42,963 nt of DNA from an uncultured Candidatus Saccharibacteria bacterium (GTDB lineage: Bacteria; Patescibacteriota; Minisyncoccia; Phycocordibacterales; UBA9973): positions 1 through 42,963 of the forward strand of contig CAYXTA010000005.1 in NCBI GenBank assembly GCA_964468315.1. Direction: 5' to 3'. Both the position numbers and the translations under genes were made by a program. The notes under the pieces were generated by a model. That model was not told where the DNA came from and did no database searches. It saw only the letters and a list, made by a program, of their open reading frames with translations. Positions 35,618-42,963 of the stretch are shown piece after piece. How positions within the stretch are numbered: position 1 is the first letter of the stretch; the number at the start of each line of letters is the position of its first letter.

Positions 35618-35691
35618 TGCCAGATCGTCTAATGGTAGGACACCTCCCTCTGGAGGAGGTTATCTTGGTTCGAGTCCAAGTCTGGCAGCCA
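35618..35691 (+). tRNA. tRNA-Gln (anticodon CTG), CCA encoded
   Basis: Acceptor TGCCAGA/TCTGGCA, D-arm GTC..GAC, anticodon stem CCTCC/GGAGG with loop CTCTGGA, T-arm CTTGG-TTCGAGT-CCAAG. Confidence 0.96.
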
Positions 35692-37191
35692 GCTTGTACA
35701 GTCCGCTAATTCTAGGACTAGATTAAATGGAGAAGCTATTGCAAACTCTAGCTTTTTTCCGTTTACAGTCGGGTTCTGAAGTAGAGAGTTCAAAAATGCT
35801 CTTTTTCCTGCAACATCAGAACTATTTTCAAAAATTGTTTTTGCTCTGCGTGCTACAGAAACAATCATAGCAACGGTAGTTTGATAATCGTAGTCTGCTT
35901 TTCTATGCTCGGACATTTCAATTTCTAGTAGCTGTATTTTATCAGTGTACTCTTGGTGCTTTTTGTCATAAGTATCCTTAGTAATACTCGTATCTAAAAA
36001 TGCTTCAAGTAATCTATTCTTTTTTGCTTCTAAGTTATCGTGGTCTGTGCGTATGCGATTTATCTGTGCCTTATGAAAAACTATTTCAGCTTCAGTATTC
36101 TTGCGTAGGTCATTTACAAGCTCGTTCTGTGCTTCCTCTGTAATGCTCTCAAATCGCTCTAAAACCTCGTACACGGGCTTCAAGAGGTCGTTCTCGTTGA
36201 TGTATATCCTCTTACAAATACGCTTTGCGTTAGTGCAAGAATAATAGATAAAAATAAGTCCACTTTTCTTAGTCTTGGTTTCAGCTGTCATTGCACAACC
36301 GCAGTTTTGACACTTAAGCAAACCCTTGAATATAAAATCTTTAGAATGTGCCTTATAGGGCAAATTGGTGCGTTTAAGGCGTACCTGTTTGCATTTATCA
36401 AACAATTCTTTGCTTATAAGACGAGGGTATTTATGTGCATACGCACCGTATTTTTCTGATACAGCAATACCACAAAAGAAGCTATCCTTTAAGATATTTT
36501 CAATACTACTTCTTCCAAGCTCGTTCCCATTTAGAGTGCGTAGCCCAAGCTCTGTGATTTTTATTCGTATCGTTTCTAGTGAGTGTTCGTCTGTTGCGTA
36601 AAGCTCAAACATTTTTGCAACTAAATGTCCTCGTTCAGGGTCAATTATTATATCTTTGCGTAATCTTCTTTCTGTATCTAAAGAAACATTAAGATAACCC
36701 AAGCGTACTCCGCCAGTCCATTCGCCATTTCTTCGTTTGTTTTCAAATGCTCGTCTTACATTGTCGCCAATAGCATCGGAATAGTATTTTGCCAAACCCA
36801 AGCTCATACCAAATTGGAACTTCTCAACAGCAGACATTTGAGTATTTATAATCTGTCCTTCTGATACAAAGTGAAGTTCAATCTTATCAGCAATCGCAAG
36901 TTCGTAGAGCCGAGCAACTCTTTTATCAAAAACACTTCTTGAAAGTCGGTCTACTTTATCAAAGCAAACAGATATTTTTTCTTTTTTAATTATATCCTCA
37001 ACATACTCAAGCAATTTATCAAACTCATCTCGTTTATCTTTATACGCACTTTCATCAAAACTGAAAGATTTTATTATCTCAAAAGATTTCTTTTTACAGT
37101 AACTATTGATACGCTCAATTTGAGCAGGCAACGAGTTTCCAGCTTCTTTTTGTTCTTCAGTTGATACTCGTGATACATTTATTGCTTTCAT
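35629..37191 (-). CDS. Large serine recombinase (resolvase + recombinase + zinc ribbon + coiled coil)
   Basis: SRVSTEEQ catalytic motif, DKVDRLSR, LG.LN, CQNCG..YYSC; the C-terminus overlaps the tRNA antisense. Confidence 0.92.
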   Translation of the reverse strand: MKAINVSRVSTEEQKEAGNSLPAQIERINSYCKKKSFEIIKSFSFDESAYKDKRDEFDKLLEYVEDIIKKEKISVCFDKVDRLSRSVFDKRVARLYELAIADKIELHFVSEGQIINTQMSAVEKFQFGMSLGLAKYYSDAIGDNVRRAFENKRRNGEWTGGVRLGYLNVSLDTERRLRKDIIIDPERGHLVAKMFELYATDEHSLETIRIKITELGLRTLNGNELGRSSIENILKDSFFCGIAVSEKYGAYAHKYPRLISKELFDKCKQVRLKRTNLPYKAHSKDFIFKGLLKCQNCGCAMTAETKTKKSGLIFIYYSCTNAKRICKRIYINENDLLKPVYEVLERFESITEEAQNELVNDLRKNTEAEIVFHKAQINRIRTDHDNLEAKKNRLLEAFLDTSITKDTYDKKHQEYTDKIQLLEIEMSEHRKADYDYQTTVAMIVSVARRAKTIFENSSDVAGKRAFLNSLLQNPTVNGKKLEFAIASPFNLVLELADCTSWLPDLDSNQDNLLQREVSYH

Positions 37192-37193
37192 AA

Positions 37194-38366
37194 TTAAAAT
37201 ACTTTTTCTAATTTCTTTTTTGAAATTGAAGTTTTTTTGAGTTTATTTATTTGTGTTTTTTCCATTAAAAATAAGTACTCTTTATGAGCATCATTTTCGT
37301 TGGAAGCGTTGAGCCATTCATTCGTCCAACGCATACTTGCCATTATGTTTTTCTTATAGTCAATTTCTATTATTTTAAGAACTTTCCCCGTTTCATTTAA
37401 GATTGTTTCAAGCTCTTTTTTTGTTGCCCTCCCTCCAGAGCTGTAAGAAAGCATAACGTATTTTGCATTAGTTTTTTGTATGAGTGTTCTAATCGCTTCC
37501 ATAGCGATAAAATTACCATTATCATTTTTTCTGAACTCTTCAAAAATTGAGCCAGCGATTAAATCTCTACTATCTTCTCGTCTGTTTACCTTACCAAAAA
37601 GTTTTGGTTTATCATTTTTAATAACAGTTGTCCAAATGTGGTAATAAGAAGCATATCTAACACGACTAGGGGGCATTTTCTCATTGTTTGAACCATAAGG
37701 GGGGTCAAAATAAGCTAGGTCAAAAGAGTGTTTCTCTACCACCTTGTAAATATCATCTTTGATTATCTTATGTTTACCAGTTGTCTTTTTTAGATTTGGC
37801 AATTTAAGAAAAAGGTCATTATAGGAACGAGCAGACCACTTGGAAAGATAAGAAACGAAGTGTCCAAGGGTACTGTCTACAGCATCAAGTGCGAACAATA
37901 AACTTGTTAGCACAACTGCTTTGTCTGTGTCATTTAATTTTAATTCATCAATTCTATCTCTTATCGCATCTAGCTTTCTTGTATTTTTCTTTTGAAAAGG
38001 CATCTTTACTTCCATTTCCTCATCACCTCCGTAGTGCTTTGTAAACCAACCATCGTAACCCTTAAGAGCGTTCAACTCATCAAGTATTGTTTGGTAGTAT
38101 TCTCTATCTTTATCGTGCAAGAGAAAACATTTTGCACAAACTTCAGACCAATCTGCTATATCACTAGAGGTAACATCGTAACCAGCTTGAGCAAGTGCTT
38201 GACTTACTCTAGTTGAACCACTAAAACCATCCAAAACGGTTTTAATTTCTAGGTCTTTTATAGTTTCTAATATGTAAGGAATTATTTTGAGCTTAGAGCC
38301 AGCATATTTAATTCCTTGTGTTTTTATATCAGAAAAATCTTTTTGATTAAATAATGTTTTTGACAT
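37194..38366 (-). CDS. N6-adenine DNA methyltransferase (D12/FokI-like class)
   Basis: KYAGSK, LDGFSGS (motif I), YFDPPY (motif IV), LSYS. Confidence 0.88.
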   Translation of the reverse strand: MSKTLFNQKDFSDIKTQGIKYAGSKLKIIPYILETIKDLEIKTVLDGFSGSTRVSQALAQAGYDVTSSDIADWSEVCAKCFLLHDKDREYYQTILDELNALKGYDGWFTKHYGGDEEMEVKMPFQKKNTRKLDAIRDRIDELKLNDTDKAVVLTSLLFALDAVDSTLGHFVSYLSKWSARSYNDLFLKLPNLKKTTGKHKIIKDDIYKVVEKHSFDLAYFDPPYGSNNEKMPPSRVRYASYYHIWTTVIKNDKPKLFGKVNRREDSRDLIAGSIFEEFRKNDNGNFIAMEAIRTLIQKTNAKYVMLSYSSGGRATKKELETILNETGKVLKIIEIDYKKNIMASMRWTNEWLNASNENDAHKEYLFLMEKTQINKLKKTSISKKKLEKVF

Positions 38367-38368
38367 AA

Positions 38369-39220
38369 TTATAATTTTTTCAATCTATCTATATCTTTTT
38401 GTAGAATGATATTTGCTTCCTTGTGGCTTTCTTCAGTGCTATTTAATGCCAAACTAAACAACTTAACTAGCGTGTGATTATGAGAGTAGTCAATCCACCC
38501 ATTTGTAAGACTATCAAAGTAATTTAGTGCGTTTTTTGTATTTGTCCAAAGACCTCTCTGAAGTGCATTTGCTGAAGCACCTCCGTAACGTACTTCACAT
38601 ATATATTCACCATTACTATCTAAAAACATAAAGATTGGATGTTGTCTTGTTTTTCCTGTCTTCTTACCACTATGACTTTCTCCATTACCAATATATTTAA
38701 TTCTAGCAGTTTCATTCATTGCTTTTTCGTGGTCAAAAACCATAATGTTACATTGTTTCTTTTTTTCATTATAAATCAGAGGCATTACATTTATATTATT
38801 GAAATCTGCAAATGCAGGAGACGCAAATATATCTTTTATTTTCTTTTTATCCGTAATGTCCTTGCCTTGTATTTCAAGGAATGGAAACATTTTTTGTTCA
38901 CTATCTGTTGAAAGTTGTAAGGGACCGTCTCCGTATGCTTTTAAGCTTACAGGGAATTGAGATTTTGTTACTTCATTGATAATCATAATATCCTCCTCTC
39001 TTTCTTTTGCTCTGAAAAGGTCTTTACCGACGTGTATACTTCTGAAGTCATACATAAACTGATTGATAAACTCAGCAATTCCTATTTCTGCTAAATCCCC
39101 GTGAGTTTTGTTACCAATAAGTCTCATAGTAAATATGTTAGACAAGGTATTTATAACCAAATGCCTGTGCTTACTTACTAGTAACTTAAATCTATCTTTG
39201 AAATCTTTATATGGGTTCAT
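38369..39220 (-). CDS. Putative type II restriction endonuclease
   Basis: 2 nt upstream of the MTase; GDLAE...EDI...SLKAY resembles a PD-(D/E)xK variant. Confidence 0.6.
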   Translation of the reverse strand: MNPYKDFKDRFKLLVSKHRHLVINTLSNIFTMRLIGNKTHGDLAEIGIAEFINQFMYDFRSIHVGKDLFRAKEREEDIMIINEVTKSQFPVSLKAYGDGPLQLSTDSEQKMFPFLEIQGKDITDKKKIKDIFASPAFADFNNINVMPLIYNEKKKQCNIMVFDHEKAMNETARIKYIGNGESHSGKKTGKTRQHPIFMFLDSNGEYICEVRYGGASANALQRGLWTNTKNALNYFDSLTNGWIDYSHNHTLVKLFSLALNSTEESHKEANIILQKDIDRLKKL

Positions 39221-39240
39221 AATTTTAATTTATATAATAA

Positions 39241-39420
39241 TTATTTTGTACTTACTTTTTTAAGAAAAGTATTAAACTCTACTTTATCAATCCTAAAATC
39301 ACGACCGATTTTGTGTGCTTTCAAACGACCTGCTTTTATGTAGCGGTAAATGGTCATAATGTTTACCTCTAGTAATTCAGCTAAGTCTTCTGCTTTATAA
39401 AACTCTTTTTCTTTAATCAT
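39241..39420 (-). CDS. Excisionase-like helix-turn-helix protein, 59 aa (absent from the ORF track)
   Basis: MIKEKEFYKAEDLAELLEVNIMTIYRYIKAGRLKAHKIGRDFRIDK. Confidence 0.88.
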   Translation of the reverse strand: MIKEKEFYKAEDLAELLEVNIMTIYRYIKAGRLKAHKIGRDFRIDKVEFNTFLKKVSTK

Positions 39421-39443
39421 AAATGTTTTGTATTTACCTAATA

Positions 39444-39472
39444 ATTATACTTTACTCCGCTTTACATAGCAA
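39444..39472 (-). promoter_or_regulatory. Promoter for the HTH-REase-MTase-recombinase run
   Basis: Minus strand TTGCTA-17 nt-TATAAT. Confidence 0.65.
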
Positions 39473-39632
39473 CTTTATCGTCAGTGAACAACTTTTTCCT
39501 TCGTATTCCTTGTTTTATGCGTTCTGATAATTGTCTTCTGTATTCAAGATTTAGCTCTCGTGTCATTGCTTCACGAAAGAAGTTTCTTTTGAGCTTTCTT
39601 TTAGCATTTTGTTTTTCTTTATTGTTTTTCAT
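39462..39632 (-). CDS. 56-aa basic small protein (absent from the ORF track)
   Basis: MKNNKEKQNAKRKLKKKLLREAMTRELNLEYRRQLSERIKQGIRRKKLFTDDKVAM; start overlaps the Rep 3' end. Confidence 0.6.
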   Translation of the reverse strand: MKNNKEKQNAKRKLKRNFFREAMTRELNLEYRRQLSERIKQGIRRKKLFTDDKVAM

Positions 39633-40734
39633 AAGTTTTAATTTTATATGGTTTATAATCTTCCAATGCTTTATCTATCTGCATTACCCAATCTCGGAGA
39701 TTATTTTTGGTTATAAGCTTGCCAGCGTGTTGCATATCTTTGGCTATACGATACCAAGTCATAACATTACACTTTTTAGATATGATTGAGCGTAATTCTC
39801 GCATTCCATTTTCGTCCCTACCAAGCATATACAATCCTAAAAGGTATATAGCTCGGTTTGGTTTGATTTTGCTGTCAGCTAAATAAATGGTTCTTATGGC
39901 ATCTTTTACACTTAACGAGATTGAAAACAGTCCAAGATTGCGTTCTTTGATGAGTTTTTGCCAATAATCTTTTACCACCTTTTGAGACATTTCTTTATTG
40001 AAAACATCTTTGAAAAGGGGGTTCTTCTGATAGCCCAATTTTTCAAGTACGCTGTTCATTTTTTGTTTTTGGATTAAGCGGATTTCAAAGCGTATAACTT
40101 CAAACATTTCTTTCTTTTTAATTTCACCAAACAAACTTCGTTGATAAAGTGTTTGGTCTTTATCTATTGCTCGCTTCTTATCCTTACCCAAGTCAGCTAC
40201 TTTGTCGTAAATAACAAGCTCGTGCGAGGCGGTATGAGCGTACAAACTTTGTCCGTCATTGATAAATCTTGCCTTTGCAAAATCAAAACTCTTTCGTAGG
40301 TCTATCTTACCAATTTCGCTAATAATGTGGCTTGCGGTATATCCGCCTTCAAGTTTTATGTTCTTTGAAAAATGAACAGAGCTTACTGAAGCATTTTCAA
40401 GAACTAACCTTGTAACTATTACGCCCATAGTTTTAAGTCTTTCCTGTAAGGTTTCAATTACTTTAGGAAAATCTTTTTCTTCAAGTTCGTCTAGGTTATT
40501 TAGGTATAACAACTTAGGGACTGAAAACTCCATACGAACATTCGCATCTTGAGAAAACCGCCGTTTATATCCAGTCAGTCTGGGAAAATAATTTCCTGTA
40601 TCTTTTTCCGCTTTATTCGGATTACGAACAAACTTCGCATAGTCGTCTGTCTTAGAATACAACTCCCAACTCACTACTCCCGAAAGGTAAATCATTTTTT
40701 CTTTTGGTATGAGTAAACATATTGTATCAATCAT
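39619..40734 (-). CDS. Putative rolling-circle replication initiator (Rep_trans / phage CRI-like)
   Basis: MIDTI, MEFSVPKLLYLNN, ELVIYDK, IRFEIRL. Confidence 0.65.
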   Translation of the reverse strand: MIDTICLLIPKEKMIYLSGVVSWELYSKTDDYAKFVRNPNKAEKDTGNYFPRLTGYKRRFSQDANVRMEFSVPKLLYLNNLDELEEKDFPKVIETLQERLKTMGVIVTRLVLENASVSSVHFSKNIKLEGGYTASHIISEIGKIDLRKSFDFAKARFINDGQSLYAHTASHELVIYDKVADLGKDKKRAIDKDQTLYQRSLFGEIKKKEMFEVIRFEIRLIQKQKMNSVLEKLGYQKNPLFKDVFNKEMSQKVVKDYWQKLIKERNLGLFSISLSVKDAIRTIYLADSKIKPNRAIYLLGLYMLGRDENGMRELRSIISKKCNVMTWYRIAKDMQHAGKLITKNNLRDWVMQIDKALEDYKPYKIKTYEKQ

Positions 40735-40894
40735 AATTTTCTGTCTTTTTAATCTGATAAATATCTAACGCAGGATTTTGTTTTTTGTCTTCCTGAATAA
40801 GCCATCCAAAAGCACCGACCAACCTCGCCCTTTCATCAAAAGAGAGGTCTTTCATTCTGAACGGCTTTTTCAGTTGTTCATTAACTTCCTGCAT
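40727..40894 (-). CDS. 55-aa small protein coupled to Rep (absent from the ORF track)
   Basis: MQEVNEQLKKPFRMKDLSFDERARLVGAFGWLIQEDKKQNPALDIYQIKKTENYD; its stop overlaps the Rep ATG by 8 nt. Confidence 0.6.
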   Translation of the reverse strand: MQEVNEQLKKPFRMKDLSFDERARLVGAFGWLIQEDKKQNPALDIYQIKKTENYD

Positions 40895-40899
40895 AGAAA

Positions 40900-40923
40900 A
40901 CCCCGAAGGGTTATCTTCAGGGT
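40900..40923 (-). terminator. Hairpin between the 422-aa gene and the Rep operon
   Basis: Minus strand ACCCUGAAG-auaacc-CUUCGGGGU then UUUCU; an alternative AACCC-UUCG-GGGUU stem overlaps it. Confidence 0.5.
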
Positions 40924-40947
40924 ATTAGATACGGTACTTAAGTTTGC

Positions 40948-42216
40948 TTAATTTTTATTTATATATTTTGTGTTCAATCTTGCAGAATGTTTGGTTAGTT
41001 CAAATATATTTTCTACTTCGGGGATTGATAACTTTACCTTTCTATTGAATTGATAGATTGCATTTTTTACAGCAGTTTCGTTTACATCATTACCACCCAG
41101 TAACTCGCTTATGTCATACAAACTCCATTCTGTATAAGTGTTTTTTGGGTTCTGAAAGATAACTCTTAGAACTTCTTTTTGTACTTGCCCTTGAACTTTT
41201 ACCTTGTATTCTTTACCTTCTTGGTCAGATAAAGTCATCGTTCCTGTTTGGGAAGAAAAACTTAAGTTCAGCTTAAGTCCTTTGGTTTTTTCTGTTTCAA
41301 CTGCATCTTTTTTTACTTGCCCAAGTAGAGAAGGAAGTGTTATCGGGGTCTGATGGAACTTAACATTCCAAAGCTCTGTATCATTCCAATTTCTAACTTT
41401 TATTCTTGTTTCTCTTTCTAGGTAAGACATTATTTTAATCACTTCAAAACCCTGCTCTAATAAAGCAGAAAATGGTATGTTTACGCACCCATCAATTTCA
41501 GGTAATGCCTTTATGTATCCAAAAAAGTTTTCAAGTTGTTTTGAAAAATAGAACCTCTTACTTTTATAGATGGGTTTCTTATCAATAAAATCGTCTTGTG
41601 AGAAAGAAAAAAGTAAATCATCAATGTCTTTATTAAGTTGGTCTACTCCTTTTTGGTCAAAATCTATTTCAATTTCAATAAAAGGTGCGGAGATAGAGGA
41701 AATGTATTGTATATATCTATGAAAATCGTTTTCAGTAAAATTAACTCCATTTGTATTTATATTACCGAAAGTAGCTTTTTTATTCGTTCTGAAGTACGCT
41801 TCTCGTTGCCTCTCCTGTAGCTTATCAAGGTCTGATATTTCTTTTATAATACCAGTGTAATACATAACAGTATCTTCCGTGCATTCTTTATTATTTAATG
41901 CTTCCCGTATAACTTTTTCTCGTAACGCATCTAAATCAGTAACGCTTATCCTTTTGATTTTACCTAACTTCAAATCTCTAGTAATTTGTACCACCTGACG
42001 AAGAACTAAATCCTCAACAGAGCCATAGTCATTGGTATCTTGCACTTCTTCTGTTATTTCCTCAATCTTCCAATACTCACCTTTAAGAAATTGCTCTAAT
42101 GTAAGTATATTTTGCCCTCTATAATATCCCTCAAGTAGTATATGAAGTGTAAGTAGGTTTATATCGCTATTGAAGTAATCAAAAGGTTTTAAGTAAAAGT
42201 CTTCATCTTCTTCCAT
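40948..42216 (-). CDS. Hypothetical protein with a C-terminal winged-helix-like domain
   Basis: C-terminal QKEVLRVIFQ..WSLYDISELL..AVKNAIYQFNRKVK; N-terminal part not recognised. Confidence 0.65.
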   Translation of the reverse strand: MEEDEDFYLKPFDYFNSDINLLTLHILLEGYYRGQNILTLEQFLKGEYWKIEEITEEVQDTNDYGSVEDLVLRQVVQITRDLKLGKIKRISVTDLDALREKVIREALNNKECTEDTVMYYTGIIKEISDLDKLQERQREAYFRTNKKATFGNINTNGVNFTENDFHRYIQYISSISAPFIEIEIDFDQKGVDQLNKDIDDLLFSFSQDDFIDKKPIYKSKRFYFSKQLENFFGYIKALPEIDGCVNIPFSALLEQGFEVIKIMSYLERETRIKVRNWNDTELWNVKFHQTPITLPSLLGQVKKDAVETEKTKGLKLNLSFSSQTGTMTLSDQEGKEYKVKVQGQVQKEVLRVIFQNPKNTYTEWSLYDISELLGGNDVNETAVKNAIYQFNRKVKLSIPEVENIFELTKHSARLNTKYINKN

Positions 42217-42269
42217 TTATATAGTTTACTTTAGTTTACAATACTTTTCAAGATTGTTATTATAATCTT

Positions 42270-42827
42270 ATGCCCAAAAAGCAAAAAACGATTGAAATAA
42301 AGTATGAGGAAATGGAGCAATATGATACCTCTTGGGACGATGAAGTAATGGCAAAAAAGGAAGAACGATATTCTTCACTCATAGGTTCATTCTTAATATG
42401 GTTCAGTAATCTTGAACATAGCTTAGATATAGAGTTGGCTAATATTATCAACGAGCGTGCACACGATGAGGGCTATATAATAATCAAAGATTTAGAAATG
42501 TTTGAAAAGATTGAGCTTTTTTACAATCTTGCATTTCCTAGAATTAACTTTTCAGATAAGAAGAAGACACAGAAATTAAAACAATTAAATAAAATCAGAA
42601 AAGAACTAGAAGATTTAAGTATTATAAGGAATAAGATAGCACACGCAAAGTGGAATACTTTAGACAAAGATGGATATGTAAGAGTAGATACTAAAACTAA
42701 TAAAGAAAATGGGCTTATCAAGTTTAGAAAGTTCAAGATTACACCAATAATAATGAAGCAAGGTGTTAGACAAATTGAAGGGCTAACTGAAAGACTTTCT
42801 ATATTTAGAGAGAACATATTTCGGTAG
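42270..42827 (+). CDS. HEPN-domain protein
   Basis: Helical protein with F..LE motif and RNKIAH (R-X4-H). Confidence 0.65.
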   Translation: MPKKQKTIEIKYEEMEQYDTSWDDEVMAKKEERYSSLIGSFLIWFSNLEHSLDIELANIINERAHDEGYIIIKDLEMFEKIELFYNLAFPRINFSDKKKTQKLKQLNKIRKELEDLSIIRNKIAHAKWNTLDKDGYVRVDTKTNKENGLIKFRKFKITPIIMKQGVRQIEGLTERLSIFRENIFR

Positions 42828-42871
42828 GAAAAAGGTTTAATATACCACTAAACTGCAATTCACTTTTAATA

Positions 42872-42926
42872 CTAGCCCAGTTTGCGGTTCTGAACCTGTC
42901 CACTACTGCCAGCAAACTTGAGCTAG
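42872..42926. other. Long imperfect stem-loop in non-coding DNA
   Basis: Minus strand CTAGCTCAAGTTTGC...GCAAACTGGGCTAG: 14 bp with one bulge and G-U pairs. Confidence 0.6.
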
Positions 42927-42963
42927 CACGAGATGCTTATAAATTGAGCTTTCGAATTAGCAA

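Follow-up and report, generated by a model that had tools for sequence, protein, structure and literature searches.

The 42,963-nt window analysed here, contig CAYXTA010000005.1 of an uncultured Candidatus Saccharibacteria bacterium (assembly GCA_964468315.1), carries an integrated element of 7,224 bp (35690-42913) whose two ends both lie inside the window. Judged from its sequence, this is one small integrative element of Patescibacteria, present as a single complete integrated copy. Its large serine recombinase (LSR) gene runs antisense into a host tRNA-Gln at one end of the element, and a detached 3' end of the same gene lies at the other. The features at the two junctions are the following.

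35618-35691, plus strand: tRNA-Gln(CTG), the integration target and B arm of attL, intact (ARAGORN).
35686-35689: attL core CAGC, at tRNA positions 71-74 (comparison of attL, attR and empty site).
35629-37191, minus strand: LSR, integrated isoform of 520 amino acids (aa) (Pfam PF00239, PF07508, PF13408).
35632-35685, minus strand: tRNA-encoded tail PDLDSNQDNLLQREVSYH, with its TAG stop at 35629-35631 in the D-loop region of the tRNA (translation).
35690-35720, minus strand: P' arm, in the last conserved recombinase codons (..LVLELADCTSW) (identity with locus L081).
42808-42909, minus strand: detached recombinase 3' end, 34 codons AVVDRFRTANWASIKSELQFSGILNLFPTEICSL, with a TAA stop at 42805-42807 (translation; homologous tails in 45 elements).
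42910-42913: attR core CAGC (Logan contig joints and loose ends at 42909/42910).
42914-42963, plus strand: B' arm, host sequence, the start of a conserved trailer of about 125 nt (same sequence after unoccupied tRNA-Gln genes).

A preliminary description of this DNA had noted that the recombinase open reading frame (ORF) enters the tRNA-Gln in antisense with no stop ahead of it, and the frame does end inside the tRNA, which is the only one in the window and is reported by ARAGORN with an encoded CCA. The same description took the last 21 codons to be the reverse complement of the tRNA; this is correct for the final 20 codons and the TAG (WLPDLDSNQDNLLQREVSYH*), which match 35629-35691, but not for the serine preceding the tryptophan, whose codon (35692-35694) lies just beyond the tRNA. 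Within the overlap, W501 (TGG) is the antisense of CCA, L502 that of the discriminator and positions 72-71, and the D-S-N of the tail that of the T-loop GTTCGAGTC; the element-encoded part of the protein is residues 1-502, ending ..CTSWL. The protein contains a resolvase catalytic domain (PF00239, E = 2.4e-21, residues 7-158) in which R8 and S10 are invariant across 70 homologues, together with a Recombinase domain (PF07508, E = 1.7e-12) and a Zn_ribbon_recom domain (PF13408, E = 2.5e-10). C297, C300, C302, C322 and C329 are invariant in the homologues, which fits a four-cysteine zinc ribbon, and AlphaFold2 predicts a coiled-coil insert in the zinc ribbon of the relative P0108 (helices 355-402 and 408-451; predicted local distance difference test (pLDDT) about 60-89). 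Logan contigs of three sequencing runs cross 35660-35857, so the junction between tRNA and recombinase did not arise by chimeric assembly.

A search of 5.8 billion proteins returned more than 1,600 homologues, the best 120 of them at 71-90% identity. These 120 are mostly metagenome proteins; the few named ones, and most of the genome loci, belong to Patescibacteria, the candidate phyla radiation (CPR). Homologues are conserved through ...SPFNLVLELADxPNWL and diverge after it. tRNA-antisense ends, which the preliminary description had thought worth surveying in related recombinases, proved common: among 80 loci from species-representative genomes, 74 had enough downstream sequence, and at 45 of the 74 a tRNA on the opposite strand starts no more than 60 nt from the end of the recombinase match (37 tRNA-Asn, 3 Gln, 3 His, 1 Asp and 1 Arg). 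The ORF-into-tRNA layout is evidently not chance. The tRNA-encoded tails of these relatives run from two residues (WLRG*, the commonest ending) to about 30, as set by the tRNA, the frame and the first antisense stop, and relatives at tRNA-Gln share the ending ..SYH*. Given this variation in length, the tRNA-encoded tail itself looks incidental.

The closest relative, P0002 (90% identical; locus L081), has 84% DNA identity to the window up to TGGCTG, where the identity ends exactly and non-tRNA sequence follows. Six-frame comparison of the sequences past non-tRNA junctions matched the final 150 bp of the window and so located the far end, where the recombinase strand (42918-42805) reads S-L-L-AVVDRFRTANWASIKSELQFSGILNLFPTEICSL-stop and resembles the end of long homologues such as P0108 (...WLPLVDKFRTANWANIKSDLQFSGILGFFPTLSLQN). 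The distal attachment site presupposed by the preliminary description was thereby found, with the attR core at 42910-42913, and attP could be reconstructed by inference. A search of the window for a long direct repeat of the tRNA 3' end gave none. attL, attR, attB and the inferred attP share no stretch other than the 4-bp CAGC (plus strand, 35686-35689 and 42910-42913), and the crossover dinucleotide is accordingly placed within it. In the orientation of the recombinase, with hyphens setting off the core, the four sites read as follows.

attL, observed in the window: AAGCTG-GCTG-CCAGAC.
attR, observed in the window: AAGTTT-GCTG-GCAGTA.
attB, observed as empty sites: AAGTTT-GCTG-CCAGAC.
attP, as reconstructed: AAGCTG-GCTG-GCAGTA.

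The core consists of the third base of codon W501 and codon L502. This agrees with the earlier proposal of a crossover in or near the tRNA 3' end and puts the core within the ORF; the contrary case, a core lying wholly outside the ORF, is not what we observe. On the P/B side, the GAAC in the T-loop TTCGAAC follows the first base of the leucine codon by 17 nt in 33 of 35 tRNA arms, and the GAAC in the P arms (GTTCAGAAC) lies 22 nt from that codon in 45 of 49; the P arm, with GTTCAGAAC, is the first ~25 bp of the detached tail. For LI integrase, attB has the zinc-ribbon-domain motif 5 bp closer to the centre than attP does (Rutherford et al. 2013, PMC3783163), and the GAAC spacing follows this 5-bp rule on the P/B side only. 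The T-loop is thus most likely the distal motif of the B half-site, which would explain the switching of tRNAs among close relatives.

Unoccupied sites were recovered both in the source study and elsewhere. A 52-nt Logan unitig from X2, a public run of the same study, has 35660-35696 joined to AGCTAGCACGAGATG, exactly the sequence that follows attR; it differs from the window at two letters, probably 35690 and 35692. Scanning Joint Genome Institute (JGI) metagenomes for the sequence beyond attR gave 12 loci, nine of which (L085, L087-L091, L093, L095 and L096) carry it directly after an unoccupied tRNA-Gln (...CAGCAAACTTGAGC...), and the remaining three have it after the P arm of another element. 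The sequence at empty sites, ..GGCAGCAAACTTG, does not encode a CCA. In the unoccupied tRNA-Gln genes (L085-L096), C74 is followed by AAA; the element supplies CA (35690-35691), so that the CCA is encoded once the site is occupied. Sequencing depth of unique host flank against element is 14.2 versus ~7.2 in run X1 and 9.8 versus ~5.5 in X2; the insertion is therefore polymorphic, with the element in only part of the population. Beyond attR, the sequence reaches a summed depth of ~300 in run X1 and is common to many genomes, which accounts for the end of the contig at 42963.

The sequence on the far side of attR is of interest in its own right. A conserved trailer of ~125 nt stands directly after tRNA-Gln in many CPR genomes (window 42914-42963; L085-L096, e.g. 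L089:273-412) and combines an imperfect hairpin of ~50 nt (AGATCTATAC) with a small hairpin and a terminator, its first 31 nt being the part that reaches ~300 summed depth in X1. It matches no Rfam family, and a scan of a viral contig collection for the B' sequence gave no match; it could be a small RNA or a tRNA trailer, forming the B' half of attB. At window 42909/42910 in runs X1-X3, and in L094, a second element with P arm ..GGTTCCAACTTCATCCCACAACC-CAGC abuts the same trailer, so that this type of site is contested by no fewer than two related elements in one community.

Circular relatives retain the gene in one piece. L098 and L099, contigs of 9,436 nt from two runs with a 30-nt terminal repeat, are circularly permuted copies of a single 9,406-bp molecule and match exactly (0 mismatches). 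The circle has no tRNA, and its 537-aa recombinase is unbroken across attP; L097 (7,412 nt, 43-nt terminal repeat) has the same appearance. Common to the circles and the window element is a backbone of a 371/372-aa protein, an HTH_17 protein, variable restriction-modification cargo and the recombinase.

As the preliminary description had anticipated, the integrated and excised forms differ in their C-termini, with 18 tRNA-encoded residues in the former against the native 34 residues found at attR. The same native tail, in frame with the core and on the recombinase strand, stands at the distal end of 45 related elements; those with a full-length recombinase measure 6.2-10.5 kb. Across 27 alignable copies, the entropy of the detached tail at codon positions 1/2/3 is 0.93/0.70/1.25. 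For tail codons 13-28, which are past any plausible half-site, the ratio of nonsynonymous to synonymous polymorphism (pN/pS) is 0.40 in the recombinase frame versus 1.14 and 1.65 in the other two frames; a second tail class (ALxDDFRTIDWAKEYPYPT...) gives 0.14-0.36, and the upstream gene body is alike at 0.17-0.32. These values indicate that the native tail is under purifying selection at the protein level. Because it shows coding selection and attR provides it with no start codon, the detached segment would be translated as the recombinase C-terminus once P' and P are joined. A 185-aa ORF on the plus strand (42270-42827) is convergent with this tail, and its 3' end overlaps the last ~7 codons (42805-42827).

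Taken as a whole, we consider it very likely that the attP of this element lies within the LSR reading frame, that the gene is cut at tRNA-Gln, and that two isoforms result. By all indications the LSR carries attP at codons W501-L502 of its own frame, and a two-isoform design, with a 536-aa long form in the circular state and a 520-aa integrated form, is established at the level of sequence comparison. The P' arm coincides with the last conserved coding sequence, and the P arm with the beginning of the last 34 codons. Recombination of attP with attB, the latter formed by the tRNA-Gln acceptor 3' strand and T-arm on one side and the conserved trailer on the other, crosses over in the shared CAGC. 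Integration leaves the tRNA intact and provides it with an encoded CCA. The recombinase gene is cut after L502 and continues in antisense through the tRNA for 18 codons to the TAG, leaving the native 34 codons stranded at attR without a start codon. The 536-aa long form would be made when the element is circular, and the tail of the integrated form would be dictated by the tRNA, its residues presumably having no selected role. The long form is probably the integration-proficient enzyme, and loss of the native tail may alter or attenuate the enzyme in the integrated state, as in the IntP/IntX pair of phage Mx8. Excision would then rely on the short form, probably assisted by the HTH_17 protein that resembles excisionases. 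The purifying selection on the native tail lends indirect support to a difference in activity between the two isoforms.

The alternative that survives best, although we regard it as unlikely, is neutral read-through. The overlap of the att site with the gene's 3' end would then be fortuitous and both tails without importance for the enzyme, and the detached segment would owe its conservation to something else: a small peptide or RNA encoded separately at the element's end, for example, or DNA constraints on the P arm. The integrated-form tails suit such a view, since they range from 2 to ~30 residues and the commonest, WLRG*, adds only two; so do the low AlphaFold2 confidence of the native tail and the conservation of tail codons 4-11 at third positions too, as expected for a protein-binding DNA site. 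Yet the conservation is ~100 bp long and extends far past a half-site of ~25 bp, and the coding signature beyond the att site is confined to the recombinase frame. The detached segment is, moreover, always in frame with the core and lacks its own start codon at attR, and circular relatives keep a single uninterrupted long ORF.

Far less probable is a function at the RNA level, whereby read-through would make antisense RNA to tRNA-Gln, or disturb its transcription, and so couple the element to host translation. Recombinase and tRNA-Gln are convergent, and no terminator-like site was found on the minus strand between them, the first ones lying past the tRNA at 35479-35433; antisense transcription into tRNA-Gln is for that reason possible. 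The antisense layout, however, follows automatically from an attP at the gene end and needs no further cause, and close relatives use different tRNAs (Asn, Gln, His, Asp, Arg). We give next to no credence to a resident domesticated recombinase beside the tRNA, or to an assembly artefact: host DNA past attR is indeed barely represented, the contig ending 50 bp beyond it, but that end is accounted for by the trailer shared among many genomes, and such a view sits poorly with the empty sites, the element-to-host depth ratio of ~0.5, the other elements whose attR junctions use this B', the circular relatives and the three runs that span the junction of tRNA and recombinase.

Several observations nevertheless weigh against an attP embedded in the LSR frame and a gene cut into two isoforms. 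No circular (attP) junction of the window element was present among Logan contigs, so that its excised form is a reconstruction. The tRNA unitig has a depth of 32.7 against 14.2 for the host, and the empty-site unitig could for this reason come from a co-resident strain with an identical tRNA-Gln. No convincing symmetric motif was seen in P' or B', and a dyad-symmetry scan of attP-like junctions for the central dinucleotide inside CAGC gave no clear centre. In a natural long-form relative, AlphaFold2 renders the tail as two short helices at pLDDT 40-54, too low a confidence to hint at the contacts of the tail. Finally, the detached tail of the window ends ..PTEICSL, compared with a family consensus of ..P.LSLQN, and the mismatch falls where the 185-aa ORF overlaps it; the element's own native tail may be slightly eroded.

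Beyond the embedded attP and the two isoforms, the tail swap could act as a regulatory switch, through which a serine integrase would itself sense whether its element is integrated; we put this forward tentatively, as an idea that is more doubtful than not. The native tail, made only with an intact attP, would be needed for or would license attP x attB recombination, or would set the lifetime of the protein, and the tail-less or tRNA-tailed chromosomal enzyme would be locked or biased towards excision. If this were true, directionality would be set partly by gene structure and not by a separate directionality factor alone. If the T-loop is indeed read as a half-site, a serine integrase would be reading a universal feature of an RNA gene, which would explain the hops among tRNA-Asn, Gln, His, Asp and Arg.

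The LSR resembles the phage-type large serine integrases (Listeria A118/LI, phiC31, Bxb1, SPbeta SprA, TP901-1) in its resolvase and recombinase domains, its zinc ribbon with an inserted coiled coil, its short att sites with a tiny common core, and a distal half-site motif 5 bp closer to the centre in attB (PMC3783163). Unlike them, it targets the 3' tip of a tRNA, most likely with the T-loop as distal B-arm motif, appears to have attP in its own ORF with the gene cut on integration, and has an extra C-terminal region of ~60 residues in addition to the swappable 34-residue tail; unlike phages, the elements here are 6.2-10.5 kb cassettes with restriction-modification genes. The remark in the preliminary description that tRNA targeting is unusual for large serine recombinases holds, and our literature searches returned no description of CPR LSRs aimed at tRNA ends or with attP inside the ORF that encodes them.

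In a source that cites Tojo 1996 and Magrini 1999 (PMC6070905), the myxophage Mx8 is described as having attP in its tyrosine-integrase gene, integration giving a new 3' end and an altered enzyme. Mx8 is the nearest precedent: like the LSR, IntP/IntX have an attP core within the integrase ORF (codons 501-502 here) and a new 3' end on integration. The layout is shared but not the family, the domains here being those of a serine recombinase rather than a tyrosine one, whose chemistry differs, and Mx8 is a single phage with a longer overlap region, whereas the LSR belongs to a family of thousands. The attB sites of Mx8 are reportedly located at tRNA genes too, namely tRNA-Asp. In Sulfolobus viruses and plasmids, integrases of the SSV1 type are likewise said to carry attP inside int, with integration at a tRNA splitting the gene to both ends of the element; those are archaeal tyrosine recombinases, split in the gene body with a non-functional integrated copy, whereas here only the last 34 codons are removed. 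In the integration-dependent immunity of the mycobacteriophages BPs, Brujita and Charlie, reportedly the subject of Broussard et al. 2013, attP is said to be placed in a coding gene from which integration removes a C-terminal peptide, altering the stability of the protein. In those phages it is the repressor gene that is cut, by an integrase of the tyrosine type, and no degradation tag is evident in the window tail. The tRNA-associated tycheposons of Prochlorococcus are also small cargo-carrying integrative elements beside tRNA genes, in a different phylum and nearly all with tyrosine recombinases; 27 of 937 use a large serine recombinase (bioRxiv 10.1101/2020.12.28.424599), and neither an attP inside the recombinase ORF nor a tail swap is reported in the text searched.

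Variations on this layout were seen among the relatives. At L010, L036 and L055 (also L012 and L024) the ORF runs antisense in another frame (...GRIRTCDQSINSRPLYH) through nearly the whole tRNA-Asn. At L009, L022, L026, L027, L030, L053, L070 and L072 the ORF tail corresponds to the 3' half of tRNA-Asn as far as the anticodon loop, followed by unrelated sequence in which ARAGORN calls no tRNA; these loci may hold a fragment of a tRNA, or a tRNA-Asn interrupted by an intron. Joined junctions are found in chromosomes too, at places where elements stand in tandem at one tRNA-Asn. L017:10001-19735 has a second, distant LSR between the first element and the tRNA, and L074, L078, L079 and L080 have C-terminal fragments (about the last 100 codons), a P arm, a further element or fragment, and then tRNA-Asn. 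Such arrays point to repeated insertion at an occupied site; canonical serine integrases avoid sites that are already occupied.

At four loci (L001:1806-2060, L007:3783-4000, L035:2409-2610 and L051:2536-2715), an extra module of ~160-260 nt separates an outer copy of the tRNA-Asn 3' end (15-24 nt) from the P arm. In L001, L007 and L035 the module is conserved and has terminator-like hairpins at its bounds, that of L051 being weaker; it could represent a miniature non-autonomous element, or else a scar left by some previous insertion. The outer 15-24-nt repeat was considered as the element boundary at these four loci and rejected, the true P arm lying 160-260 nt further in. Because the outer-repeat boundary had given the wrong attP tails, a reading in which members of the WLRG* class encode an identical protein whether integrated or excised was withdrawn.

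Between the recombinase and the detached tail, the element carries the following genes.

37194-38366, minus strand: cargo, a D12-class N6-adenine DNA methyltransferase (Pfam PF02086, E = 2e-19).
38369-39220, minus strand: cargo, a 283-aa protein with no Pfam, PHROG or NCBIfam match.
39241-39420, minus strand: a 59-aa HTH_17 excisionase-like protein of the conserved backbone (Pfam PF12728, PHROG excisionase families).
39619-40734, minus strand: a 371-aa conserved backbone protein, sharing 72% identity with its 372-aa counterpart in the circular relative L098.
40948-42827, both strands: cargo, a 422-aa ORF (minus) and a 185-aa ORF (plus) (ORF list).

PHROG, Pfam and NCBIfam searches gave no family match for the 371-, 422-, 185- or 283-aa proteins. 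Because relatives hold other restriction-modification genes in the same slot, the 283-aa protein is, from its position, a candidate restriction endonuclease. The HTH_17 protein, which is also present in L081, L097 and L098, is a candidate directionality factor or regulator, and the 371-aa protein is possibly the replication protein of the circular form.

Serine integrases are major tools of genome engineering, and their one-way action is attributed to coiled-coil contacts together with a separate directionality factor. Here a very large natural family appears to cut its own gene on integrating and to keep the removed 34 codons under selection, which suggests an extra, self-encoded layer of control in this integrase family. 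The near-universal T-loop and acceptor end of a tRNA would, moreover, be usable by a serine integrase as an attB half-site, a target present in every genome. The window is a particularly clean case, with both junctions, an empty site, polymorphism in the population and circular relatives. For the biology of the CPR, it points to small elements that shuttle restriction-modification and other defence genes, as circle or insertion, and that are polymorphic within one population.

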